Source: Candidatus Fimadaptatus sp.
GTDB taxonomy: Bacteria; Bacillota; Clostridia; Christensenellales; Aristaeellaceae
Assembly: GCA_050946055.1 (NCBI GenBank)
Contig: JBMNUB010000002.1
Location: 97,338 to 161,337, forward strand
Direction of reading: 5' to 3'
Length of the DNA: 64,000 nucleotides
Of the stretch, positions 16,560 through 64,000 are shown one piece after another. The notes under the pieces are model-generated. The model did not search any database. It was given only the letters and a program-made list of their open reading frames with translations, and was not told the origin of the DNA. The translations under genes were made by a program, and so were the position numbers. Each line of letters opens with the position of its first letter. Positions within the stretch are counted from its first letter, which is position 1.

Positions 16560-16800
16560 AGCGCATCAGGAGTGATGGGGTGCGGATGATGTGTATGAAC
16601 AAGGTGCGCACTTTGCCAGCATAGCCATCAGAAGCGATGGACTGCGGACGATGTGCATGAGCAAGGCGCGCTCTGCCAGCATAGCCATCAGAAGCGATGG
16701 ACTGCGGACGATGTGCATGAGCAAGGCGCGCTCTGCCAGCATATCGCATCAAAATCGCTGAACCTGTCGCGGCGCGCGTGCGTCCAATATTCCAATGGGC
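16560..16800. repeat. 60-bp tandem repeat: two perfect copies (16621-16680 and 16681-16740) flanked by degenerate copies
   Basis: ATAGCCATCAGAAGCGATGGACTGCGGACGATGTGCATGAGCAAGGCGCGCTCTGCCAGC occurs twice in succession, with about 70%-identical copies on either side. The repeat artefact explains ORF 16384..16752(-). Confidence 0.9.
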
Positions 16801-25546: not shown

Positions 25547-25696
25547 GCGATATCCCGCCGAACAGCGATTAAAAATTGCCGCTCCCCAAGACGGGGGCGG
25601 CAATTTTTATGTTGACCAAGCCAATGGCCTGATTGCTACGGAAAAGCTCCGCGCCGCGCACAAGACAGGTTTTAAGACAAATGCGCCCTTGCAATG

Positions 25697-25935
25697 GCAA
25701 TCCCCGGCAATGGGATTGCCGCATACACGGCCATGCCGCGCTCGCCAATGCGGGGCGGCAATCCAGCTACGTTGCCACACATGGCTGCAAGCTAAACCGC
25801 TTAACGATGCGGGGGGGGCAATCCCCGGCAATGGGCTTGCCGCATACACGGCCATGCTGCGCTCGCCAATGCGGGGCGGCAATCCAGCTACGTTGCAACA
25901 AATAGCTGCAAGCTCAGCCGCTTAACGATGCGGGG
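25697..25935. repeat. About 120-bp direct repeat, two copies, with an internal hairpin
   Basis: GCAATCCCCGGCAATGGG(A/C)TTGCCGCATACACGGCCATGC…GCGGGGCGGCAATCCAGCTACGTTGC…CCGCTTAACGATGCGGGG repeats at about 25697 and 25817. The internal hairpin is GGCAATCCC/GGGATTGCC. Confidence 0.8.
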
Positions 25936-33947: not shown

Positions 33948-34262
33948 CAGGGAACCGGGAAATGCCCGGTTTCCGTAGACTGTCAAAAAACCTCGGAGAG
34001 CTCGGCGGGCCTCGCAGCCCGCCGACTTAGGTAGCGCCCAGCGACATGTGCGGTGGGCGCTCAGGATTTTTTACGCATGGAAATCTCATTTCCCGGAGTA
34101 AAAATATCTTCCTTGCAGTTTCCACGCCCGGAAATCCGCAGGATTTCAGTGGAAACTGAGTATGGGTGGCAGTGGCGGGGGAGATTCTCCACCGTCCACG
34201 CTTGTCAAAAAGACGCTTTGACAAGCTGAGGGAACCGGGAAATGCCCAGTTCCCTCAGCTTG
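33948..34262. repeat. Copy A of a roughly 300-bp hairpin-rich intergenic repeat element (candidate structured ncRNA or MITE)
   Basis: Shares a conserved core with 49525-49848 and 54470-54745 (…GGCGACATGTGCGG…TTTT.C…GGAAAT…ATTTCC…CCTTGCAGTTTCCA…GTGGAAACTG…GGGGGAG.TTCTCC…CGCTTGTCAA…GATAAGCT.AG). Flanked by terminal direct copies of the hairpin GGGAACCGGGAAATGCCC.GTT.CC. Confidence 0.85.
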
Positions 34263-39056: not shown

Positions 39057-39198
39057 TACCACTTCACCATGCAAACAAGCGCCCTCGACTGCGACATTGC
39101 GGTCGAGGGCGCTTTGCGCACAATGGGGGGATGCCCGCACGGTACAGCGCTGTGAGCGCTGCACGGTATGCGCAGCGTTGCGCTTGGCGGCGTTGTAC

Positions 39199-39338
39199 GG
39201 CCTAAGCAGCGTGGTACTTGGTCGTTGCGCGGCCTAAGCAGCGTGGTACTTGGTCGTTGCGCGGCCTAAGCAGCGTGGTACTTGGTCGTTGCACGGCCTA
39301 AGCAGCGTGGTACTTGGTCGTTGCGCGGCCTAAGCAGC
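39199..39338. repeat. 32-bp perfect tandem repeat, four full copies plus a partial one
   Basis: GGCCTAAGCAGCGTGGTACTTGGTCGTTGCGC with period 32. No spacers, so not a CRISPR array. Lies between convergent genes. Confidence 0.9.
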
Positions 39339-39377
39339 TATGATGCCGCAGCGCACACGCGAGCCGTGCGCCAGCAT

Positions 39378-40850: not shown

Positions 40851-43800
40851 ATGGGCAAGCGCAGGCTGATGTCGCTGGCACTCAGCGCAGTGCTGGCGTT
40901 TGGCACTTTGCCGGTGTATTCACTGGCCGGCGAGATGCCCGAAGTGCCGCTGTCCGGCGCGGAGCAGCCCGGCACGAGCGCACAGCCCGACGTGAGCGCA
41001 CAGCCCGACGTGAGCGCACAGCCCGACGCGAGCATACAGCCCGACGCGAGCGCACAGCCCGACGCGAGCGCACAGCCCGACGCGAGCATGCAGCCCGACG
41101 CGAGCATGCAGCCCGACGCGAGCGCGCAGCCCGACGCGAGCATGCAGCCCGACGCGAGCATGCAGCCCGACGCGAGCGCGCAGCCCGACGCGAGCGCGCA
41201 GCCCGACGCGAGCGCACAGCCCACAGAAGCTGCGCCTGGCATGGGCGAGGCCGAGCAGAGCGTGATAAACGCCGACATACGCCTGCCTAACGGCTATGCC
41301 TATCAGATAATGACGCCCGAAGCGCTGACCACGGTGACGCTGCGCAACCGCGGCGATTCGCTGCCCGCAGGGTCGGTGGTGACGCTGAGCGGCACGGGGC
41401 TTGACGTGTCGCCTCAGAGCGTGACCATGGACGGCAGCCAGACCGCGTCGTTTAGCGTGGTGGCCTCGGCTGACGGCGTGTACACCGCGCGCGTATCGGT
41501 AAAGAGCGCATCGGGCGTGGAGCAGTATGCGCGCGATATACTGCTCATATGCGCCAAGGACAGCTCAAGCTTTGCCATACCCGTGATATGTTCGGATATG
41601 TCCGGCTCGGTGATAAAAAAGGTGGACTTCATACGCGCCGACGATCCCGCCACCAAGCTGGAGATAAACTCCTCGCTCATGCCTGCGGGATACAAGGCCG
41701 AGTGGAGCATATCCAACACCACCGGCGAGGGCAACGCCACCATAAAGCTTACCAGCAACGGCTCTACCGTGCGCCCGCCCATACTCTACACCAAGTCCAA
41801 CGTGGCCAATGTGGAGGCCACGGTCACGCTCAGGGTCACGCTGCCTGCGGGCGAGGTGCTGACGCGCCAGATCCCCGTAAAGTACGAGGTGCGCGCGCAG
41901 GTACCTACGGCCTTTAAGACCACGGGCGACGTGGTAGTGGCGCAACTGGGCGGCCTTGCACCTGTCGATCTGACCGCGCGCGAGTCGGGAAGCGCGCTGA
42001 CCGATGGCATGAGCGTAATGGCAGCGTTCAGCGGCGATTACGACACGCAGCTGACCACATCCACCTTCTCGCCTGAGAAGGGCTTCTCGATAGGCGCGCT
42101 CAAGCCCGGCGTGTATAAGGTCACGATAACCGCCATAAGCGATGTGGCCGGGCTGACCGACGGCACCAAGTTCACCAAGGAAGTGAACCTGATAGTCGCC
42201 GATGAAAATGGCCAGCTGCCGGACGGACTGTTCTCGCTTGAACCCGGCAGCATAGAGCAGACGCTCTATCTGGGTGCGGAGACGCTGGGCAATGTGGCCG
42301 TAAAGTACGCAAGCCCCATCGACTCGGACGCGGTGTTTACTACCGCGTGGCAGGTGCGCACATCCGACGGCAAGCCCTGCAACATAACCGCCGACACCAA
42401 GGGCGATGCGCGCGGCAACAGCGCCAGACTGTGCGTGACAGGCGAGCTGGCTGCGGGCGAATACGTGGCCACTGCTACCGTCAACTTCAAGGGTGCCATA
42501 AAGACGCTCACGCTGCCCATAAAGCTCACTGCGCTGGCCCCGCGCATATACGGCCTGCGCGAGAGCTACACCGTGCCTTACGCATACAGCGACTATGTGA
42601 TAAGTGCGCCCGGCGTTGTGCTTGAGACGGCCTCCGGCACATGGCAGGAATACACAGGCAAGGTCAAGTGGAGCTGCGAGGCGCAGGATGCCGCCGGCAA
42701 GCGCGCATTCTCGTCCGTGACCACCGACCCCAGCAGCGGCTATACCCGCATGGTTATAGCTTCGCCGCGCGTGCCGGGCAGATACAGCTTCAAGTTCACC
42801 GCCGAGCTGAGCGATGGCCGCACGGCTGAGCAGGTAGTCACACTGGGTCTGGCCGATCAGAATGGCGTAGTGCCGACTCCCGCGCCCACGCCCGATCCCA
42901 CTCAGCCCCGCAAGGGTACGGTCAATGCCACCCGCGTAAACGTGCGCGCCTCCGCCAGCACTGACGGTGAGCGTCTGGGCATGGTGCAGCGCGGCGACAG
43001 GCTGACCATAACCGACTGGAGCGGCGAGTGGTATAGCTTCACTTATAACGGCAGAAAGGCGTATATAAAGGGCGAGTACGTGACTCTGGATGCATTGGCT
43101 ACGCCTGAGCCCACCGCCACGCCCACGCCCGATGCCAAGCCCACGGATGCACCGGCCACATACGGCAAGGTCAAGCTAAACAGCGGCACGCTGCGCATGC
43201 GCGAGAGCGCGAGCGGCAGCGCCCGCGTGCTGGCCAGCATACCCAACGGCGCTGATGTCGAGATACTCGGCACTCAGGGCGAGTGGTACAAGATCAGGTA
43301 CGACGGCAAGACCGGCTACTGCGCGCGTCAGTACATAGTGGTCGAGTCCACGCCCACCGAGCGTCCCACATCCAAGCCCACCGCCACGCCCACGACTGCG
43401 CCCGGCGTGCGCAAGGGTACGGTAACGCTCAGCGATACCGGCTCCAAGCTGCGCATACGCTCTGCGGCCAGCAAGAACGCCTCCGAAGTGACGCGCGTGA
43501 GCCACGGCACCAAGGTGGAAGTGCTGGGCAGCGAGGGCGATTTCTACCGTGTGCGCATAGGCAATATCGAGGGCTATGCGGCCAAGGCGTACATTAAGCT
43601 GGACTCCTCCGAGACCGACGCGCCCACGGCGCGCCCCACGTCTTCGGTGACGCCCAAGCCCACCACGTCGTCCAAGCCCACGGCGCGCCCCACGGCGGAT
43701 GCCAAGTACGCCACGGTCATGAAGGCTGACGGCCTTGCGCTGCACGAGACCGAGCAGGGCGCGACCATACGCACCATACCCAACTATGGCGTGGTGCAGG

Positions 43801-44105: not shown

Positions 44106-44204
44106 TGAACGGGCGCGGGGCGCTGCCGCAGCGGCAAAGCTGCGGCAGCGCCTTTGTCTTATCATGCGGGCTGTGAGCCTAAGCCTTGGCGTGTGGAAGT
44201 GCGT

Positions 44205-44545
44205 ATCGCTAGCATGCACGAGCGGGCATAGCGCCTGTGGCATGAGTATGCATCGGCGGGCATCGTACCTGTGGCATGAGCATGCATCGGCGGACATAGC
44301 GCCTGTGACATGAGCATGCACGAGCGGGCATAGCGCCTGTGACATGAGCATGCACGAGCGGGCATAGCGCCTGTGAAATGAGTATGCATCGGCGGGCATC
44401 GTACCTGTGACATGAGCATGCATCGGTGGGCATAGCGCCTGTGGCATGAGCATGCATTGGCTGGCATAGCGCCTGTGGCATGAGCATGCGTAGGCTGGCA
44501 TAGCGCCTGTGGAATGCGCGTTCATCGGTGGGCATCGGCCACCAT
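44205..44545. repeat. 34-bp imperfect tandem repeat array, about 10 copies
   Basis: Unit CATGAG(C/T)ATGCA(T/C)(C/G)(G/A)G(C/T)GGGCAT(A/C)G(C/T)(G/A)CCTGTG(G/A) repeated head to tail. Generates the artefactual ORFs 44162..44467(-) and 44209..44535(-). Confidence 0.9.
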
Positions 44546-44767
44546 TATCACATGGCACAGGCACGATGCATTCAGCCCGTTACAGCGCAGGGAATATGTG
44601 GTATTATATGGACGATGGATGCGCGCATGAGCCTTGACGATGGAGGGCGCGAGGTTTGTGCGCTGGAACGTGCATTGCGATAATATGATATTATAGATGT
44701 GCGCGGCGCGCAGTGAAAGCGACTTAACCCGAACCTGTGCGCATAAATTCATTGTGGAGGTGTTTGT

Positions 44768-45808
44768 ATGGCCGATATATTCCTGTTTCCCGGCGGCAAT
44801 ACGCCGGGAGGATTCGTAAGCCACTTTGACGATATACTGCCGCCGGAGCGCGCGCGCCGGGTATACTTCATAAAGGGTGGCTCGGGCGTGGGCAAGAGCA
44901 CTTTTATGCGCGCCGTGGGCGAGCACTGCGCGCAGAAGGGGCATGATGTGGAGTACTTCAACTGCTCCAGCGACCCGCAGAGCCTGGACGGAATGGCGAT
45001 ACCGGCGCTGGGCGTGGCCATGATGGATGGCACTGCACCGCACATCATGGATCCGCGCATGCCGGGAGTACGAGATCACCTGCTGGATCTGGGCAGGTTC
45101 CTTGACGAAGCTGCTCTGGCGGGCAAGCGCGAGACGCTTGAGCGCATCATGCCGCGCCGGGCCGCCTGCTTTGCGCGCGCATATGTGTATCTGAGCGCGG
45201 CACTGCCGCTGTATGATGCGGCGGGGCGCGCGGCAATGGCGCGGCCTGTGGATGAAGTGTGCGAGGACATATGCGAGGCGCTGGCGCTGGATGGCAGGCG
45301 CGGCGGGCGGCGCGGCAGGCTCAGGCGGCTGTTTGCCGATGCGTTCACGCCCGACGGACTGGTGAGCGTGCTGGACACGCTGAACGCCGGACTGCGCATC
45401 AATGTGCGTCTGCCTTGGGGCGGAGACGCCTCGGAGGCGCTCATGCGCGTAGCCGGGCGCGCCTGCGCGCTGGGTGAGGATGCCGTGCTGCTGCTTGACC
45501 CCATGCGCCCCGAACGCACGCTGCACCTGTATCTGCCGGGGTCAGGCGCGCTGGTGTGCGCGGGTGAGGGGCTGATGGAGCGCGGCGGCCGCTTCGATGC
45601 GGAGATAGCGGGCGCTAAGGCGAGCAATGTGCCTGCATTTGACCGCGAGGAGTTTGACAGGCTGGTGAGCGCCGCCATTGACCGGCTGCATGACGCGCGC
45701 AGCATGCATGCCGAAGTGGAGAACATATACTCGGCGGCAATGGACTTTGAGGGCGTGCGTGCGCTGCGCGAGCGCGTAATAGGCGATGTGGACGCGATAA
45801 TGCCATGA
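44768..45808 (+). CDS. P-loop NTPase of unknown function
   Basis: Walker A motif GGSGVGKST near the N-terminus; no other recognisable domain. Confidence 0.6.
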   Translation: MADIFLFPGGNTPGGFVSHFDDILPPERARRVYFIKGGSGVGKSTFMRAVGEHCAQKGHDVEYFNCSSDPQSLDGMAIPALGVAMMDGTAPHIMDPRMPGVRDHLLDLGRFLDEAALAGKRETLERIMPRRAACFARAYVYLSAALPLYDAAGRAAMARPVDEVCEDICEALALDGRRGGRRGRLRRLFADAFTPDGLVSVLDTLNAGLRINVRLPWGGDASEALMRVAGRACALGEDAVLLLDPMRPERTLHLYLPGSGALVCAGEGLMERGGRFDAEIAGAKASNVPAFDREEFDRLVSAAIDRLHDARSMHAEVENIYSAAMDFEGVRALRERVIGDVDAIMP

Positions 45809-45960
45809 TATAGAGCCTGACATGCCATAATATTCCGCCTGCGAATATGGTCAAAATCGGCAAAAGATACGTCTAAACAATTAAAACAGATGCAAAAGGC
45901 GACAGATTATGCTACAATATGGTCATGGATCAGTCGCAAAGCTACGCAAGAGGGGGAAGA

Positions 45961-47265
45961 ATGACAATGATGCCGAGGCACAAGCGCAGACCGCCCAAAC
46001 GCCGGCGTTACCGGCTCAATCCCAAGCTGCTGCCGACAGCGCTGCTCACGCTGGCAGCGGTGGGCATGGTGTTCATGATAGTGCTGCTGCTCAAGCCGGG
46101 CGGGCCGCTTCAGGTGTTCAGCCAACCCACGGCTGTGCCGAGCGCTGCGCCCACTTCGACGCCGCAGCCCACAGAGGTACCCACGCCCGAACCCACTCAG
46201 CCCACCGAGAACACCGTGCATGTGCGCGCGATAGGCGACATAATGGTGCATGACGATGAGTTGGCAAGCGCGCTGGGCAGCGACGGCACATATGACTTTG
46301 CGCCGTTCTTTGCGCCGCTTGCCGACAGCCTGAGCGCGGCCGACTTCACCATGGGCAATCTGGAGACTACTATAGGTGAGCCGGGGCGCGACGGATATTC
46401 GGGCTATCCTTACTTCCATACGCCGCCTACGCTGCTTACGGCGCTCAAGGGCGTGGGCGTGGACATGCTGACCACCAGCAATAACCACTGCCTGGATCGC
46501 TATTTTGACGGCCTGGTGGAGACTCTGGACTCGCTGGACGCGGCGGGCTTTGAGCATACCGGCACGTTCCGCAGCAAGAGCGAGTACCAGACGCCCTATG
46601 TCATAGAGGTAAACGGCGTAAAGCTGGGCATAGTCGCCTACACATACGGCACCAACGGCATGGAGGAGCGCTCCGATCCCGACGGCGTTGAGTGGGGCAT
46701 AATGTACCTGCAAAACGCCAACTTTGAAAAGAGCGCCGAGCGGCTGCGCGAGGCCGGAGCGCAGGTGCTTATAGCCGTGCCGCACTGGGGCAAGGAGTAC
46801 AAGCGCGCACCCGAGGATTCTACCGTAAACTATGCCACCAAGATGGCCAAGGCGGGCTTTGACGTGATAATAGGCAGCCATCCGCACATGGTGCAGCCCA
46901 TAGAGTGGCTGGAGACCACGCAGGCGGACGGCAGCGTAAAGCGCACGCTGGTGGCGTATTCGCTGGGCAACTTCGTCTCGGCGCAGCGCGACCAGTACAA
47001 GGATACCGGCATAATACTGAACTTCACCATAAGGCAGGACATAGCTACGGGCGCTATAACCATAACCGATGTGGGCTATGTACCGGTATGGGTATGGCGC
47101 TATGCGGGCGAGGGCAAGAACGAATACCGCGTGCTGCCCGTGGGCGCGGCCATGGAGAGCGTGCCTGAGGGCATGTCGCAGGATGATCAGAACCGCCTGA
47201 ACGCCACATGGAGCGAGACGGTAGAGCTTATGACCACCGGAGGCATAACTGCGCTCAAAAAGTGA
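45961..47265 (+). CDS. capA: CapA/PgsA-family metallophosphatase-like protein (poly-gamma-glutamate biosynthesis family), membrane anchored
   Basis: Basic N-terminus, TM segment, P/T-rich linker, then the CapA domain (VRAIGDIMVHD…GNLET…TTSNNH…HWGKEY…GSHPHMVQP). AGAGGGGGA RBS before the ATG at 45961 (track ORF starts at 45919). Confidence 0.8.
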   Translation: MTMMPRHKRRPPKRRRYRLNPKLLPTALLTLAAVGMVFMIVLLLKPGGPLQVFSQPTAVPSAAPTSTPQPTEVPTPEPTQPTENTVHVRAIGDIMVHDDELASALGSDGTYDFAPFFAPLADSLSAADFTMGNLETTIGEPGRDGYSGYPYFHTPPTLLTALKGVGVDMLTTSNNHCLDRYFDGLVETLDSLDAAGFEHTGTFRSKSEYQTPYVIEVNGVKLGIVAYTYGTNGMEERSDPDGVEWGIMYLQNANFEKSAERLREAGAQVLIAVPHWGKEYKRAPEDSTVNYATKMAKAGFDVIIGSHPHMVQPIEWLETTQADGSVKRTLVAYSLGNFVSAQRDQYKDTGIILNFTIRQDIATGAITITDVGYVPVWVWRYAGEGKNEYRVLPVGAAMESVPEGMSQDDQNRLNATWSETVELMTTGGITALKK

Positions 47266-47654
47266 CCATGCACAGCGACGCGGCGGGCATTCATGCCCGC
47301 CGCGCGCGCATAGGCGGGAGCTGGAGCGGGGAGAGGCGCGGCAGGACAGGTGCAGGGTGTAGAGTGCGACTGTGTGCATGGCAAAGTGCGTGTTCATATG
47401 CATGATGCATAGTGCGACTGTGTACATGGTCTGGCGCGTGTTCATGTGCATAGCGCAGCGCATGCCGATATTCGATATGCATGGCAATGCACACACCGAT
47501 ATACGATGCGTACATATGCCGCCGCGCCAGAACCGCGCATGTCGGCAAAGCATGAACATATCTGCACAAGCATTGAGCGGCGCTTGCATTCGCCGACAAG
47601 CACAGCACGATAGCCATGATTGCAGCCGGCAGCGCTGCCCGGCGCGCACGCATG

Positions 47655-48599
47655 TCCTCTCAAACTTTGATGGCTATGATTTGGCGGATGAACCATCCAA
47701 GAAGTTTAAGGATGCGATTAGAACACCTTCTAAGACGTTGATGTTTTATAAAAAGGTGGACGGCGTATGCTGTGTGGTGACAGCCGTAGGACAGCAGAAT
47801 AAATACAAGAAAATATGGGTGGAGAGCGCATACTTTGACGATGGAACCGCTTCAAAAATTGCACAAAAAATAGAGGAAATTACGTGGAGCCGCCATCGAA
47901 TAATGCCGGCGGAAACGTCCAAAACGTCACCACTTCTTTTCCCTCTGCGAATAGTATATCCCAAGAGACTCAGCAAGTCAACGTGCCTGTTGGCAATTTA
48001 ACACAAACAGCCCCTCACATATGCCGCAACGGCAGCCCGCTGTTTGCCGGGATGGCCGAAGCAGAGCTGACGAGCGAGATTGCCCGCGAAGGCCGCATGT
48101 CGCAAGACCCCGACCCGGCGGTATCGGAGCTGGCTAAGGAGCGGCTTCAGGCGCTCAGAAGCGAGCGCGACACGAGGGCGGATGCAGGTGCAAATGATGC
48201 GCGCAGGGCGCGCAGGGATGCCGCGCGCACAGACAGGCTCGCGGAAATAGACGAGATGATAAAGTCCATTCCCGAAGCCCCTGACGGCGAGCTGAGCCGC
48301 CACCGCAACTACTGCGCCGTCAGATAGACCAGCTCACAATCGCGCAGGAGGGCGCGGACAAGGCCACGGCTAAGATGTACTCAAACGAGATACAGCGCAT
48401 GCGCGAAAGCCTTAAGGAGATAGAAAAAGATGAGCATGGCCGCGCCGATCTGCGCCGAACCGATGCTGAGCGCATGGCGCAGGAGCTGGCGGGCAATCCG
48501 GCACGCGCTGAGGTTGAGGGCGCGGCGCGCGATGTTTACATACTGGAAAAGCAGCGCATAAAGCTAAACCAGCAGACCGGGCATGAAGCGACAGCTTAA
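47655..48599 (+). pseudogene. Low-GC islet carrying one ancestral gene split across three reading frames (two -1 frameshifts); origin probably foreign
   Basis: Three consecutive ORFs (47372..48001, 47884..48327, 48375..48599) lie in frames 2, 1 and 0 in that order. The frame-0 reading is open upstream of the ORF3 ATG and spans the frame-1 stop. Composition is clearly more AT-rich than the flanks. The 5' part of track ORF 47372..48001 is GC-rich repeat, not coding. Confidence 0.55.
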
Positions 48600-48611
48600 A
48601 AGGAGTTTGCT

Positions 48612-49376
48612 ATGATGATAAGCGATGAGTTTTTGGAGAAGTATCGCGTGCTTGAGGACTTGCTCAGCGAGCGATATGCGCTGGAGCCGCGCAAGCACTC
48701 CAGCGTGGTGATAGAGTTCGCGTCCAGCCGCGAAGGTGAGCTGTTCAAGGACAGGCTGGATTTGTGCCGGGAGATACGCAACCTGCTGACACACAACGCG
48801 GCGCTGGACGGCGAGCCTGTGGTCACGCCCGCCCGCGCTACGGTCGACATGCTGGACGAGATAATCGCCTACGTGCAGCGCCCGCCGCTGGCGGCAAACT
48901 GGGCGACCAGCGCTGAGCGGCTGCTTATGACCACGCTGGAAGAACCGGCGCTCAAGCTCATGCGCATAATGGAGAGCCGCGGCTTTTCGCATGTGCCTGT
49001 GATGGAGCGCGGGCGCATAACGGGCGTGTTCAGCCAGAGCACCGTGTTTTCGTACACCTGCCGCGAGCGCGGCGCGCGCATCGACGAGCGCACGCGCGTG
49101 GGCGACATGGCGCGCTTCCTGCCGCTGGAGCGCCACTCCAGCGAGCGCTTTCTGTTCATGCCTGCGGACGTGAGCTATCTGGACGCGGCAACGGCGTTTA
49201 CGCCCGGTCAGGAGCGCACCAAGCGCGTAGCGGCAATATTCATAACCGAGACGGGCTCGCCCGACGAATCGCTTATAGGCATGCTCACGCCATGGGACAT
49301 ACTGGGCAAGGCCAAGCGGCAGATAGTCCAGCCCGAACACGGCGACACGCGCGCCGTGGTGGATGAGCAGATGTGA
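48612..49376 (+). CDS. CBS-pair domain protein with an N-terminal domain carrying a HEPN-like Rx4H motif
   Basis: Two CBS motifs (…GFSHVPVMERGRITGVFS… and …AAIFITETGSPDESLIGMLTPWDIL). N-terminal CREIRNLLTHNA contains R-x4-H. AAAGGAG RBS. Lies directly downstream of the pseudogene islet. Confidence 0.6.
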   Translation: MMISDEFLEKYRVLEDLLSERYALEPRKHSSVVIEFASSREGELFKDRLDLCREIRNLLTHNAALDGEPVVTPARATVDMLDEIIAYVQRPPLAANWATSAERLLMTTLEEPALKLMRIMESRGFSHVPVMERGRITGVFSQSTVFSYTCRERGARIDERTRVGDMARFLPLERHSSERFLFMPADVSYLDAATAFTPGQERTKRVAAIFITETGSPDESLIGMLTPWDILGKAKRQIVQPEHGDTRAVVDEQM

Positions 49377-49524
49377 ATGCGGATGAAGCAGAGCAGGGCA
49401 TGAGCATATGCACATGCGGATGAAGCAGAGCAGGGCATGAGCATATGCACATGCGGCTGACGTATATGGACAACGCGGGCATCGCAGCAGATTACATGAA
49501 GCCGCATGGCTCGCGCCTGAAAAG

Positions 49525-49848
49525 CAGCGCCGCTCCCGGACGCATTTGTCGGGAGCGGCGCTTGAACTATCGAAAAAGCCTCAAGGAGAGCTTGGGCCGG
49601 CTCGCAGCCCTCTTGACTTCGGGCGCGTACGGCGACATGTGCGACATGCGCACGATTTTTGCGCCGGGAAAATCCATTTCCCAGACCCAAATGCATGCCC
49701 TGCAGTTTCTATGCTCGCAAGCATTAATGCATGAGTGGAAACTGGTAGGAATGGCATGGGGGAGCTTCTCTCCCCGTCCGCGCTTGTCAAGCGCCATTTG
49801 TGATAAGCTAAGCGCCGCTCCCGGACGCATTTGTCGGGAGCGGCGCTT
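49525..49848. repeat. Copy B of the roughly 300-bp hairpin-rich repeat element
   Basis: Homologous core to copies A and C. Bounded at both ends by the identical hairpin CGCCGCTCCCGGACGCATTTGTCGGGAGCGGCG (49528-49560 and about 49811-49846). Preceded by a 38-bp direct repeat, two copies, at 49382-49457. Confidence 0.85.
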
Positions 49849-49926
49849 GTGTATATAATCTTTGGGGAATGCGTGCGGTCATGCACATGTGCCGCGCGCT
49901 TACGAGTGCATACGCTTACAATCGGC

Positions 49927-51243
49927 TCACTTGAGAATAAGCTCGATGACCGGCACTATTACGTTGGGCTTTACCGGCGGCAGCTCCAGTATCAGCTGAT
50001 CGGGATTGGCGACGGCCTCGGCGGAGAAGTGATCCACCTTGCCCTCGGTGAACTTGACCTCGCTGCCGTCGTGCAGGAACTGGGCGTAGTCCACCTTGCC
50101 CGCCAGACCGTTCAGCGCTACGTGTGCGAACGGGTATGCGAACAGGTGCAGGTACAGGCGCTTGCCGTCCACGGACTGAGTGTAGCGGCAGTCGGCGGGC
50201 GCGACAAACTCAGGCTCGGCCATGGTGCAGTTGTATATGGCGCGGGAGTTGCCGTGCATCCAGTCGGCGTAGACTTTGAGTGCGTCCTGAGCGCGATAGT
50301 CGAACTCGCCGCGCGAGGTCGGTCCCACGTTCATGAGCAGGTTGCCGCCCAGAGCGACGGTGTTGACCAGCATGCGTATGAGCATCTCCGGGCTCTTCCA
50401 GGTCTGCTCATCGCGGTAGTAGCCCCAGCTGCCCGAGAAGGTCTGGCAGGCCTCCCAGGTGACCAGCTCGCCGGTCTCCTTATGGCGCACCCAGCTGGTG
50501 GGCTGGAACTGCTCGGGAGTCCACAGGTCCTGCTCAAGCTCGGTGCGGTTGTCGATTATGATGCCGGGCTGCAGCTTGCGCGCGGTGGCAATCAGCTCCT
50601 CGGCCTCCCAATCGTCCTTGCCCTTGCCCTTCATCCATGCCTTGTCGCCTGTGCCGTTGTTGTTGGAGTAGGAGAAGTCGAACCACAGCACGTCTATCTT
50701 GCCGTAGTTGGTCAGCAGCTCGGTCACCTGATTGCGCATGTACTCGGCGTACTTGTGCATGTCGCGGTCCTTGCTCTGTTCGTAGGCATCGGGATCCTCG
50801 CGGCGCGGATGCAGCATGTCGATGGGGAAGTCCGGATGGTGCCAGTCTATCAGCGAATAGTAGAAGCCCACGTGCAGGCCCTCGGCGCGGAAGGCGTCCA
50901 CGTACTCGCGCACCAGATCGCGGCCTGCGGGAGTGTTGGTGCATTTGTAGTCGGTGTACTTGCTGTCGAACATGCAGAAGCCCTCGTGGTGCTTGGTGGT
51001 CAGCACCGCGTACTTCATGCCGGCGGCCTTGGCCATGCGCGCCCACTCGCGGGCGTCAAACAGGTCGGGATCGAAGTACTTGAAGTACTTGTCATACTTT
51101 TCCTCAGGAATCATCTCGCGGGTCTTTATCCACTCGTGGCGGGCGGGCATGGAGTACAGGCCCCAATGGATGAACATGCCGAATCTGTCGCGGGTAAACC
51201 ATGCGGTGTCGCCCGGGGTCTTGCGGGTTACATAGCTGGACAT
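49927..51243 (-). CDS. Alpha-L-fucosidase (GH29)
   Basis: GH29 N-terminal signature (FGMFIHWGLYS…HHEGFCMFDS…) including the catalytic nucleophile region. AGGAGG RBS. Confidence 0.9.
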   Translation of the reverse strand: MSSYVTRKTPGDTAWFTRDRFGMFIHWGLYSMPARHEWIKTREMIPEEKYDKYFKYFDPDLFDAREWARMAKAAGMKYAVLTTKHHEGFCMFDSKYTDYKCTNTPAGRDLVREYVDAFRAEGLHVGFYYSLIDWHHPDFPIDMLHPRREDPDAYEQSKDRDMHKYAEYMRNQVTELLTNYGKIDVLWFDFSYSNNNGTGDKAWMKGKGKDDWEAEELIATARKLQPGIIIDNRTELEQDLWTPEQFQPTSWVRHKETGELVTWEACQTFSGSWGYYRDEQTWKSPEMLIRMLVNTVALGGNLLMNVGPTSRGEFDYRAQDALKVYADWMHGNSRAIYNCTMAEPEFVAPADCRYTQSVDGKRLYLHLFAYPFAHVALNGLAGKVDYAQFLHDGSEVKFTEGKVDHFSAEAVANPDQLILELPPVKPNVIVPVIELILK

Positions 51244-51395
51244 ATTTGACCTCCTAGTAACTATACATTAATTCTGGGTAAATGCAAGGAAAAACTATTG
51301 AAAGCATTCTTGAGTTGATTATACTGTAAATAGCGCCCGACGTAAATGCACGTATGGGCAGAAAATATGGACTTTGAGGAATAGGAGGCGCGTTT

Positions 51396-52208
51396 ATGCG
51401 CATAGAACACTGCTCGGATGCTGAGGAACGCTTTGTCGGGCTGCGGCTTCGCGTGTTCGATAGCGGGCTGGCGCATTTGGATGACGAGTGGGATCTGCGC
51501 GACGTGCGCTCGCCATATACGCGGCTGTACTTCGTGTACTCGGGCGAAGGGGTGATATGCACGCATTCGGGCGAGCGGATGCTGCGCGCGGGTCATATGT
51601 ACCTTGTGCCGAGCGGGCTGAAGTTTGACTGCCGCTGCGGGGGCGCTCTGGAGAAGCTGTACATACATGTGGCGCTGGAGCTGCCGGATGGGTTTGACCT
51701 GCTGGGCGGCTTTGCGGATGCGCTGGAGCTGGAACTGCCGGGGGCGCTGGGTGACTCGTTGCGCGCGGCGTATGGCGGCGGCGATATAGGTTCGGCGCTT
51801 GCGCTCAAGAGCGGCGTATATGCGGCTCTTGCGGCGTTCATGGCCGAGTATGGCGCGCAGCTGCACCCGGTTAGCAGCTATTCGCCGCTGACGCACGCCG
51901 CGTTTAAGCTGATAAAGCGCGAGCTAAGCTCCAACCTGACGCTCAAGGACATCGCCGGTACGCTGAACATAAATCCCAGCACGCTGGGCAAGCGCTTCCG
52001 CGCCGAGACCGGCCAGTCGATGAGCAGCTACATAGACAGCCTGCTGATGCAGAAGCTCCAGCGCAGACTGCTCTCGGGCGACGCTACGCTGTCTGAGATA
52101 TCCGACGAGTTGGGCTTTTGCGACCAGTTCTACATGTCGCGCTACTTCAAGAAGCGTCAGGGCGAGACGCCCAGCGCGTACAGAAGGCGGCTGGGCGGCG
52201 CGGTGTAG
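51396..52208 (+). CDS. AraC-family transcriptional regulator (cupin N-domain plus HTH)
   Basis: C-terminal AraC HTH pair (LTLKDIAGTLNINPSTLGKRFR… and …ISDELGFCDQFYMSRYFKKRQGETPSAYRR). Divergent from the fucosidase gene. Confidence 0.85.
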   Translation: MRIEHCSDAEERFVGLRLRVFDSGLAHLDDEWDLRDVRSPYTRLYFVYSGEGVICTHSGERMLRAGHMYLVPSGLKFDCRCGGALEKLYIHVALELPDGFDLLGGFADALELELPGALGDSLRAAYGGGDIGSALALKSGVYAALAAFMAEYGAQLHPVSSYSPLTHAAFKLIKRELSSNLTLKDIAGTLNINPSTLGKRFRAETGQSMSSYIDSLLMQKLQRRLLSGDATLSEISDELGFCDQFYMSRYFKKRQGETPSAYRRRLGGAV

Positions 52209-52432
52209 AGCGCGACCGATGCATGCACGCTGCTGCTCGCATGCGCTCGGGCATGCGGGCTGCGAGGGTATGTCAATGCCGCTGGCATGCGTGCAGGGAT
52301 GCCGCCGCGCGCGCGTCGCGGCGTGGATTAATACAGCCTGCTCCATGATTTTACTTAAAGGGCTTTGACAGAAGCGCATAAAAATGATAACATTAAGTGT
52401 CAAATGTAAAATACTTTGGCGGAGGGATACTG

Positions 52433-53185
52433 ATGTCAGGACATAATAAATGGTCCACTATCAAGAACAAGAAGGCTAAGACCGACGCCCAGAAGGGCAA
52501 GATATTTACCAAGATAGGCCGCGAGATACTCATAGCTGTGCGCGAGGGCGGCGGCGCCGATCCGGCGACCAACGGCAAGCTGCGCGACGTTATAGCCAAG
52601 GCCAAGGCAAACAACATGCCTAACGATAACATCAACCGCTCCATACAGAAGGCTGCGGGCGAGGGCAACGCCGCCAACTACAAGGAGCTGACCTACGAAG
52701 GCTACGCGCCCGGCGGCGTGGCGGTGATACTGTCGGTCGTTACTGACAACATCAACCGTACCGCGTCCGAAGTGCGCCACCTGTTCGACAAGTTCGGCGG
52801 CCAGATGGGCGCAAACGGCTGCGTTAGCTGGATGTTCGACTTCAAGGGCGTAATCGAGCTGGAGATCCCCGCGGGCAAGGATGAGGATGACATAATGATG
52901 ATGGCTCTGGACGCGGGCGCGGAGGACGTGACCGTGGACGAGAACATCGCCACCGTCTACACCGATCCCGGCGAGTTCTCACAGGTTCGCGAGGCGCTGG
53001 AGAGCGCGGGACTTACCTTCCTGTCGGCTGACCGCACCATGCTGCCCAAGAACACCGTGGACATCACCGACCCCGAGATGGTGGAGAAGGTGCGCAAGCT
53101 GCTGGACGTCATGGAGGACGACGACGACGTTCAGGAGGTCTACCACAACGCCGTGCTTCCCGAGGAAGAGGAAGAAGATGACTAA
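52433..53185 (+). CDS. yebC: YebC/PmpR-family transcriptional regulatory protein
   Basis: Hallmark N-terminus SGHNKWSTIKNKKAKTDAQKGKIFTKIGREI and conserved C-terminal acidic tail. GGAGGGA RBS before the ATG at 52433 (track ORF starts at 52397). Confidence 0.9.
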   Translation: MSGHNKWSTIKNKKAKTDAQKGKIFTKIGREILIAVREGGGADPATNGKLRDVIAKAKANNMPNDNINRSIQKAAGEGNAANYKELTYEGYAPGGVAVILSVVTDNINRTASEVRHLFDKFGGQMGANGCVSWMFDFKGVIELEIPAGKDEDDIMMMALDAGAEDVTVDENIATVYTDPGEFSQVREALESAGLTFLSADRTMLPKNTVDITDPEMVEKVRKLLDVMEDDDDVQEVYHNAVLPEEEEEDD

Positions 53186-53195
53186 TATGCAGGCA

Positions 53196-53488
53196 GTGGA
53201 ACCCCGCGCCTGTGCGTCCGTCAGGTGACATCCTGACGGTCAACGCGCGCTGCGAGATATGGCGGCGCGCGTTTTAATGTGCGCGCAGGGAAGCGCACGG
53301 GTGCAAGCTCTGACCAATGCGGCATGCCCGGCTGCGGCAGAGTGGAACCCCGCGCCTGTGCGTCCGTCAGGTGACATCCTGACGGTCAACGCGCGCTGCG
53401 AGATATGGCGGCGCGCGTTTTAATGTGCGCGCAGGGAAGCGCACGGGTGCAAGCTCTGACCAATGCGGCATGCCCGGCTGCGGCAGAG
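53196..53488. repeat. Perfect tandem duplication of an about 148-bp unit downstream of yebC
   Basis: 53196-53340 and 53341-53488 are identical as read (AGTGGAACCCCGCGCCTGTGCGTCCGTCAGGTGACATCCTGACGGTC…GGCTGCGGCAGAG). Each unit has the hairpins CCGTCAGG/CCTGACGG and GCGCGC…GCGCGC. Confidence 0.9.
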
Positions 53489-54469: not shown

Positions 54470-54745
54470 TTATCGCTCCCAAGAGGGCTAGCGGCCCTCT
54501 CGACTTCAATCGCGCCCGGCGACATGTGCGGCGGGCGCGATTGATTTTGCCATGGGAAATGGAATTTGCCAGAGTTAAAATATCTGCCTTGCAGTTTCCA
54601 TGTACGTAAGCCTGCAGGATTCCGGCGAAAGCCGGCAGGTGTGGCAGCGGCGGTGGAGGTTCTCCCGCGCCATGCTTGTCAAAAGACTTTCTGATAAGCT
54701 GAGCGAGCGCCCGGATAAGCATTGCTTGTCCGGGCGCTCGCTGCT
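54470..54745. repeat. Copy C of the roughly 300-bp hairpin-rich repeat element
   Basis: Homologous core (GGCCCTCTCGACTTCAATCGCGCCCGGCGACATGTGCGG…GGGAAATGGAATTTGCC…CCTTGCAGTTTCCA…CTTGTCAAAAGACTTTCTGATAAGCTGAG). Ends in the 13-bp-stem hairpin GCGAGCGCCCGGA…TCCGGGCGCTCGC. Lies between convergent genes. Confidence 0.85.
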
Positions 54746-59358: not shown

Positions 59359-59447
59359 GGAGAGATGTCCGAGCGGTTTATGGAGCTAGTCTTGAAAACT
59401 AGTGATGCTTAACGGCACCGGGGGTTCGAATCCCTCTCTCTCCGCTT
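59359..59447 (+). tRNA. tRNA-Ser (anticodon TGA)
   Basis: Acceptor stem GGAGAGA/TCTCTCC. Anticodon stem CTAGT/ACTAG with loop CTTGAAA. Long type-II variable arm. T-loop GTTCGAATC. Confidence 0.85.
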
Positions 59448-59485: not shown

Positions 59486-59577
59486 GGAGAAGTACCCAAG
59501 AGGCCGAAGGGGCTCCCCTGCTAAGGGAGTAGTGTGCGATAAGCGCAGCCCGGGTTCAAATCCCGGCTTCTCCGCCA
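59486..59577 (+). tRNA. tRNA-Ser (anticodon GCT), encoded CCA
   Basis: Acceptor stem GGAGAAG/CTTCTCC. Anticodon stem CTCCC/GGGAG with loop CTGCTAA. Long variable arm. T-arm CCGGG-TTCAAAT-CCCGG. 3' GCCA. Confidence 0.85.
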
Positions 59578-63623: not shown

Positions 63624-63775
63624 ATTATACAATGCTCCTTTTGGTATTGAGTCTTTCGGATAACGGCACGATGCGCGCATGTGGAAACCGGCGCTTGGAG
63701 ATGGCGCGGTGTATGGCGGTTAGGGTATGCCGAGCTTGCATGCGTTCATCATGCGGATGGGGGAGTATCACATGG

Positions 63776-64000
63776 GGCGATGCTGCCATCGCTGAACACT
63801 GCGTCAGCAATCACGCGCATTATGCGCATGAGAGTATCGCATCAGGCGATGCTGCCATCGCTGAACACTGCGCCAGCCAGCGCGCGCATTATGCGCATGA
63901 GAGTATCGCATCGGGCGATGCTGTCATTGGCGAAAGCCACGTCAGCCAGCGCGCGCATTATGCGCATGAGAGTATCGCATCAGGCGATGCTGCCATCGCT
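63776..64000. repeat. About 70-bp tandem repeat (three or more copies), running off the window edge
   Basis: GGCGATGCTGCCATCGCTGAACACTGCG.CAGC…CGCGCATTATGCGCATGAGAGTATCGCATCA repeats with a period of about 71 bp from about 63776 to the end of the window. Confidence 0.85.

Follow-up and report, generated by a model that had tools for sequence, protein, structure and literature searches.

The subject of this analysis is a short islet of disrupted coding sequence in a stretch of 64,000 nucleotides (nt) from Candidatus Fimadaptatus sp. (contig JBMNUB010000002.1, forward-strand positions 97,338 to 161,337). This whole stretch is hereafter called the window and all coordinates refer to it unless a contig is named. 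The islet lies between a gene of the PGA_cap family and a gene whose product joins a HEPN-like domain to a pair of CBS motifs (the CBS gene). Its three open reading frames (ORFs), 47372..48001, 47884..48327 and 48375..48599, occupy coordinate frames 2, 1 and 0, respectively, just as an earlier note on this DNA had described them. The remark of the same note that frame 0 is open well upstream of the third start also holds, since the open stretch begins at 48284, 91 nt before the ATG at 48375. The locus consists of the following parts (P0001 is a homologous protein and L018 a contig that carries another homologue; aa, amino acids):

45919..47265, plus strand: PGA_cap gene (capsule-synthesis/metallophosphatase-like; Pfam PF09587, E 2.5e-68), resident, the left syntenic anchor
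47266..47654, no strand: left part of the extra DNA, non-coding, with a terminator-like hairpin of PGA_cap (47283-47306) followed by a GC-rich stretch and a 48-nt repeat
47651..47935, plus strand: fragment 1, frame 2, the C-terminal half of a PBECR3 (BECR-fold RNase) module and the start of a linker (tblastn, P0001 residues 70-137)
47926..47940, plus strand: frame break 1, a -1 shift from frame 2 to frame 1 (junction scan, tblastn overlap)
47932..48312, plus strand: fragment 2, frame 1, linker and a charged helical "tail" (tblastn, P0001 residues 180-305, E 1e-50)
48312..48313, plus strand: frame break 2, a -1 shift from frame 1 to frame 0 by a 1-nt deletion (nucleotide comparison with L018)
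48312..48599, plus strand: fragment 3, frame 0, annotated as the 74-codon ORF 48375..48599 (blastp against an ORF of L018, E 8e-7)
48612..49376, plus strand: the CBS gene, 254 aa, HEPN-like domain (residues 1-95) and CBS pair (about 100-240), the right syntenic anchor
49927..51243, minus strand: alpha-L-fucosidase gene (Pfam PF01120, E 4e-89), resident, the next syntenic anchor, colinear with contigs L004 and L007

When the window was compared by blastn with contigs of related species, the 1346 bp from 47266 to 48611 had no counterpart, while the blocks 44774-47263, 48615-49374 and 49925-53000 were matched. The comparison covers five related species in which the CBS protein is 72-80% identical, one of them being Candidatus Fimadaptatus faecigallinarum (Clostridia); the contigs colinear at PGA_cap are L004, L007, L010, L013 and L017. 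Gene order in these five relatives is P-loop protein, PGA_cap, CBS, fucosidase (on the minus strand), AraC and YebC, and the neighbours of the islet in the window (PGA_cap, CBS, fucosidase, AraC) are resident genes with this synteny kept. Because the distance between PGA_cap and the CBS gene is 66-90 bp in the relatives versus 1346 bp in the window, 47266-48611 is a lineage-specific insertion, at the level of species, between two resident genes. The suspicion that the islet is foreign was thus borne out by synteny.

A protein search with the frame-corrected product of the islet returned three proteins. The first of them, P0001 (306 aa, Logan contig L001), scores 49.1 bits against Pfam PBECR3 (PF18812), whose cut-off is 30, and is followed on its contig by the same 74-codon ORF (hereafter ORF74) and then by the same CBS gene. 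The second, P0002, is the product of the first ORF of the window as found in contig L002, which is 99.5% identical to the window at DNA level over 1915 bp, without gaps. The third, P0003, is a further copy on contig L003, truncated at both the 5' and the 3' end. In tblastn two stretches of P0001 are matched by the window: residues 70-137 by frame 2, with 32% identity and E 4e-7, and residues 180-305 by frame 1, with 83% identity and E 1e-50. Searches of Pfam, PHROG, NCBIfam and PADLOC assigned neither the frame-corrected product nor ORF74 to any family.

The annotated start of the first ORF is the GTG at 47372, and the sequence from there to 47650 bears no similarity to anything. Homology with PBECR3 proteins begins in tblastn at 47651, that is, at residue 70 of P0001 and residue 162 of the L018 protein, past their helices NHVDKRHG and NHIEKRHG, respectively. 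The first 70 residues of P0001, including the NHVDKRHG helix with the predicted catalytic histidine, are consequently unmatched in the window. The 5' end of fragment 1 is thus missing, and with it the catalytic HxxxRHG helix; what is left aligns to residues 162-262 of L018 and keeps the C-terminal S/T-A-Y strand, where WVESAYF of the window stands against WVMSAYL in P0001 and WVITAYM in L018. Fragment 2 aligns with residues 257-366 of the fused L018 product, and fragment 3 with about residues 6-95 of the 367-aa ORF situated behind the PBECR3 ORF of L018. The stop of ORF74 is the right edge of the islet and abuts the ribosome-binding site of the CBS gene, so that fragment 3 is 3'-truncated.

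Exhaustive HMMER searching with P0001 found 1118 proteins, mostly of 1000-3900 aa, in which the PBECR3 module is internal; these large proteins are polyvalent proteins of the kind known from phages and conjugative elements. P0273, encoded on the 58.8-kb contig L018 (European Nucleotide Archive), shows 37% identity with the tail included, and the 367-aa ORF behind it (L018 11083-12186) matches frame 0 of the window (E 8e-7), the match covering also about 20 codons upstream of the ATG of ORF74. The ORFs of L018 (366, 367, 257 and 702 aa) are colinear with the polyvalent proteins P0248 and P0259, from which it follows that the ancestral gene greatly exceeded the approximately 315 codons assumed in the earlier note; it was a polyvalent-protein gene, of which the window holds an internal piece cut at both ends. 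As an observation on L018 itself, its polyvalent gene (L018:9853-16240) is divided among five or more successive ORFs that differ in frame; the PBECR3 ORF shares 19 nt with the next one, and the break between them falls in a CCC run. These frame splits are due either to genuine decay or to homopolymer errors in the assembly of long reads.

PBECR domains and the polyvalent proteins of phages and conjugative elements were defined by Iyer et al. (2017, J Bacteriol, PMC5512222). The gene in the window resembles the PBECR3 members of this group in being homologous to them and in keeping the C-terminal strand region with S-A-Y, and its homologues are giant, mosaic and multi-domain, with L018 colinear. 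Unlike them, the window has an internal fragment of about 315 codons (one module, linker and tail, hence no large multi-effector polypeptide) with two frameshifts and no catalytic histidine helix. The remnant also stands alone in chromosomal intergenic space, with no phage or conjugation genes adjoining it and no virion or type IV secretion system genes close by; there were no PHROG matches. Tail and ORF74, when compared with the regions downstream of PBECR3 in 11 giant polyvalent proteins, gave nothing significant and are shared by L018 only. The mobile-element context of L018, searched with PHROGs and Pfam, consists of Big_2/Ig-like matches and a nearby ISL3 transposase only, and L018 therefore cannot be classed as a phage or as a conjugative element.

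There are two frame breaks to be accounted for. For the first, a junction scan gives 145 bits at 47926-47935, within CTTCTTTTCCCTCT, versus 134-138 bits elsewhere, and the two tblastn high-scoring segment pairs (HSPs) overlap at 47932-47950, around the break; most likely it is a loss of 1 nt in the CTTCTTTTCCCTCT tract. At the second, the window reads TAC-TGC GCC GT where L018 reads TAC CTG AGG CGG. The frame-1 sequence of the window ending in PEAPDGELSRHRNY and the frame-0 sequence LRRQIDQL... both align to the single L018 frame PQADDTELNMQERYLRRRAAQLD, the frame-1 end PEAPDGELSRHRNY being aligned to PQADDTELNMQERY in the frame of the 367-aa ORF of L018. A reading of this second junction as a gene boundary, with P0001 ending at the same stop and a separate 74-aa gene in L001, was overturned by the continuous L018 frame (TACCTG). 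Correction of both breaks yields a product of 317 aa, and its alignment is one single HSP (residues 1-314 with residues 162-456 of the fused L018 product, 34% identity, E 3e-43), which argues for a gene rather than a chance arrangement of ORFs. Judged from these alignments, the three ORFs are one ancestral reading frame with two real -1 breaks, and in this respect the proposal of a single gene split by two -1 shifts was correct.

The reservation that the frameshifts might prove to be sequencing errors can be set aside. Contig L002 is an independent assembly and is identical at break 1 with 0 gaps, and L001, from a sister strain, carries break 2 identically. Because the breaks recur in independent short-read (Logan) assemblies, they are not sequencing errors of the present assembly. 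The same recurrence counts against a reading in which programmed -1 ribosomal frameshifts (or assembly errors) conceal one functional protein. Such a reading could appeal to the fact that both shifts are -1, that break 1 lies in T TTC CCT, formally an X XXY YYZ heptamer, and that a frame change in L018 is also near break 2. The heptamer at break 1 is weak, however, and break 2 (AAC TAC TGC) has no slippery heptamer at all. The break of L018 lies 10 codons upstream of the position of break 2, at the CCC run, so the two breaks are independent and the position is not conserved; moreover, P0001 in L001 continues in a single frame through the region of break 1. The read-through product would have neither a homologous start nor the catalytic half of PBECR3 and would end at the insertion edge. 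We regard programmed frameshifting as very improbable here.

Base composition is informative about the module structure of the gene. Mean content of guanine and cytosine (GC) in the window is 60% (standard deviation 5% across 300-bp windows, of which 2.9% have 48% GC or less). The earlier note had seen a low-GC stretch from 47655 to 48600. It exists in 47655-47976, where GC is 44% (41% in 47655-47880, with GC at third codon positions, GC3, of 0.47), but not in 47977-48599, which with 59-63% GC resembles the flanks. The PBECR3 module has GC3 of about 0.5 versus 0.7-0.8 in the surrounding gene, and does so in the window, in L001 and in L018 alike. Since a low-GC3 PBECR3 module within a gene of higher GC3 is found in three homologues, the GC dip marks this module and not the borders of the insertion. 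A low-GC PBECR3 cassette in a higher-GC gene also fits the module shuffling reported for polyvalent proteins (PMC5512222).

A mosaic structure becomes apparent upon alignment with the sister-strain contig L001:

left of 47977: no DNA similarity to L001
47984-48279: 24 substitutions (8% divergence)
48280-49555: 3 substitutions and one 37-nt repeat-copy difference (0.2% divergence)

Fragment 2 is 92-100% identical to L001 at DNA level from 47977 onward, with a gradient of divergence across 47984-48279. The PBECR3 alleles of the two sister strains (window 47655-47976, L001:1-621) have 32% protein identity, sit in the same slot and are followed by near-identical sequence. Different PBECR3 alleles joined to the same tail point to recombination, and the left (PBECR3) part might have been exchanged either between strains or between tandem PBECR3 modules.

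The arrangement in L001 is also the starting point for another explanation, in which the islet is a decayed toxin-antitoxin (TA) or toxin-immunity pair. A solo PBECR3 toxin, which the sister strain keeps whole in the form of the 306-aa P0001, would have been inactivated in the window, while the 74-aa antitoxin or immunity gene was kept. Indeed, the PBECR3 domain in L001 is complete, begins with a TTG start of its own and is followed by the same 74-codon ORF; solo PBECR versions were noted by Iyer et al. (PMC5512222), and ORF74 is coding-like in composition (GC of 0.71, 0.40 and 0.66 at first, second and third codon positions). However, ORF74 and 20 codons upstream of it are homologous to the start of the 367-aa region that is continuous with the tail in L018, and what separates tail and ORF74 is a 1-nt deletion inside this L018-homologous region, not a gene boundary. 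The stop of ORF74 coincides with the insertion edge, no family match or separate small-protein homologue of ORF74 was found, and with 0 substitutions between the window and L001 it gives no selection signal. We therefore find a decayed TA or immunity pair improbable, if somewhat less so than programmed frameshifting.

We suggest instead that 47651-48599 is, very probably, a dead internal fragment of a giant polyvalent-protein gene of a mobile element, hence debris rather than a functional system of defence or toxin type. The conjecture that the broken gene was toxin-like gains substance from the predicted RNase module PBECR3, recognized through the homology search and the Pfam match of P0001. 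Because the window itself has no Pfam PBECR3 match, the assignment rests on its homology to P0001 and L018; as the window stays below the cut-off and P0001 passes it, the window carries a remnant of a PBECR3 member with an incomplete domain. The fragment cannot yield an active RNase, because the N-terminal helix with the HxxxRHG histidine is missing, there is no homologous start, two 1-nt losses shift the frame and the sequence stops short of its 3' end where host DNA begins. The islet as a whole would be what is left of a larger mobile element, or of a captured DNA segment, after erosion by deletion.

Several observations weigh against this interpretation. The reconstruction from the window gives no match above the Pfam PBECR3 cut-off, and P0002 reaches only 11.8 bits (E 0.23) where 30 are needed. 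The polyvalent gene of L018 is itself split across frames, so that the "continuous ancestral ORF" is rebuilt from two broken copies, and the breaks in these two copies sit 10 codons apart. The region of tail and ORF74, with GC3 of 0.66-0.71, is host-like and coding-like, and residual expression of a small product from it may be conceivable. Close relatives were found neither in two scans of GTDB species genomes nor in IMG/VR or the JGI metagenomes. Finally, the locus offers no integrase, no att site or terminal repeat and no other gene of a mobile element from which the arrival of the extra DNA could be read.

The gene to the right of the islet has a different status. Its ribosome-binding site, AAAGGAG, lies 7 nt before the ATG at 48612, and REIRNLLTHN forms residues 53-62 of the 254-aa product, which also contains the CBS pair; all this agrees with the earlier description. 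The two tandem CBS motifs form a Bateman fold. Residues 1-95 make a four-helix up-down bundle resembling solved HEPN domains, with the R-N-x3-H motif at the C-terminal end of a long third helix (41-61), before the loop to helix 75-89. The Rx4-6H signature with a polar residue (N, D or H) after the arginine (PMC3710099) is present as R56-N57-x3-H61, and R56, N57 and H61 are invariant in 42 homologues, down to 38% identity; R53 is invariant as well. Single members of the family give sub-threshold Pfam matches to DUF4145 (0.0088), HEPN_Swt1 (0.0049) and Ribonuc_2-5A (0.052). On the other side, no member of the family reaches a curated Pfam HEPN threshold, and neither Foldseek against PDB nor a sequence profile against PDB chains returned anything significant. 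The invariant motif, its position in the helix and the sub-threshold matches nevertheless make it likely that the N-terminal domain is HEPN, as had been proposed.

HEPN and CBS fusions were already described by Anantharaman et al. (2013, Biol Direct, PMC3710099), who also proposed RNA cleavage under the control of ligands. The window protein is like these fusions (Swt1/Abi2-like group) in that R-N-x3-H ends the third helix and a CBS pair follows, but the examples given there, alr3009 and a Pelobacter protein, may carry an HD domain as well, whereas the family in the window consists of HEPN and CBS only. It differs as well from HEPN-MNT (HepT/MntA) and abortive-infection (Abi) type HEPN toxins in having no MNT or other conserved partner, no defence-island context and no PADLOC match, and in being syntenic and widespread as a single gene.

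The earlier note had raised the possibility that this gene and its broken neighbour belong to one Abi-like or TA module. What favours such a defence module is that the two genes adjoin both in the window and in L001, that the HEPN fold and the Rx4H motif are supported, and that HEPN domains are frequent in Abi and TA systems (PMC3710099). The adjacency loses its weight upon closer view, since L001 is nothing but this locus as it occurs in a sister strain, with 99.8% identity to the right of 48280. The CBS gene is present without the islet in L004-L007, L010-L017 and L008/L009, co-occurrence being limited to L001, and the slot PGA_cap-CBS-fucosidase is kept in the five relatives that lack the islet. 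In distant relatives the CBS gene stands beside unrelated genes (ABC-F ATPase, PdxS/T). From its position in the same slot in islet-free relatives and its other neighbours in distant ones it follows that the CBS gene is a resident host gene outside the islet, and that the foreign part is the DNA upstream of it. Islet and CBS gene are not jointly conserved in the manner of a TA or Abi module. PADLOC gave no match for the HEPN/CBS protein, and the NCBIfam "DS11 antiphage" profile scored 11.6 bits versus a cut-off of 260. A common defence module thus appears about as implausible as programmed frameshifting.

The CBS gene acts on its own. Its 254-aa product is a conserved protein of the chromosome, probably a ligand-regulated RNase in which the putative Rx4H site would be controlled by the nucleotide-binding CBS pair. 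Its relatives in the database number 256, with more than 250 members in gut Clostridia, single-gene and syntenic. Only tentatively do we propose that this family is a housekeeping nucleotide-gated RNase, a chromosomal regulator of stress or RNA turnover and not a defence toxin. As a still weaker addition, the slot upstream of the CBS gene may be a recurrent landing or recombination site for effector fragments of mobile elements, as suggested by the two PBECR3 alleles in sister strains.

Repeats do not delimit the islet, contrary to the earlier description of it as bordered by them. The left repeat, in 47351-47470, is a purely local 48-nt tandem repeat (family D1) with no second copy in the window, and "element copy B" (49565-49790) is found beyond the CBS gene, on its downstream side, and thus away from the edge of the islet. 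A comparison of the two flanks of the islet found no shared repeats, and copy B has nothing in common with the left flank, so these repeats cannot be taken for the ends of a mobile element. Promoter and terminator scans of the locus were uninformative.

Copy B belongs to a structured-looking repeat element of about 240 bp, present in the window at 33979-34213 (copy A), 49565-49790 (copy B) and 54485-54684 (copy C), and further at L003:994-1231 and L019:93-174. The element has several hairpins, with some compensatory changes across four copies, and Rfam has no family for it. On both sides of copies A and B stands a duplicated hairpin, of 27 nt for A (33949/34228) and of 39 nt, perfect, for B (49526/49811), while copy C has a hairpin downstream only (54701-54742). 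In L003 the element interrupts the homologue of the PBECR3 tail, and the corresponding intergenic space of L004 and L007 is free of it. The interruption suggests that the element is mobile, being either like miniature inverted-repeat transposable elements or a small RNA gene, with insertion at terminator hairpins.

Some further features of the window deserve mention. Upstream of PGA_cap, in all relatives as well, there is a P-loop NTPase of 346 aa that belongs to PRK06851, an uncharacterised family (44768-45808; NCBIfam NF005320, E 9e-56, under the equivalog cut-off). Tandem repeats are unusually frequent in the window; their periods are 18, 34, 146, 69, 32, 121, 60 and 37 nt:

40910-41269: tandem repeat
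44177-44550: tandem repeat
53195-53486: tandem repeat
63763-64000: tandem repeat
39191-39350: tandem repeat
25696-25935: tandem repeat
16606-16725: tandem repeat
49363-49460: tandem repeat

In the 37-nt array just past the stop of the CBS gene, the copy numbers of the window and of L001 differ by one. Two adjoining tRNA-Ser genes, 59359-59445 and 59486-59577 (anticodons TGA and GCT), are the sole Rfam/ARAGORN matches in the window.

Taken together, the islet is an ordinary pseudogene remnant beside an uncharacterised gene of known type. In annotation, 47372..48001, 47884..48327 and 48375..48599 should be given as one pseudogene fragment (a PBECR3/polyvalent-protein remnant) and not as three hypothetical proteins, and the CBS gene should not be labelled a member of a defence island. 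There are two aspects of more general use. Firstly, a dip in GC content can flag one shuffled protein module rather than the borders of an insertion. Secondly, two independently broken homologues can, in combination, recover an ancestral reading frame. The HEPN and CBS family, abundant in gut Clostridia, is the only part of the locus that merits experimental follow-up; the coupling of nucleotide sensing to RNA cleavage by such proteins is a prediction of 2013 (PMC3710099).

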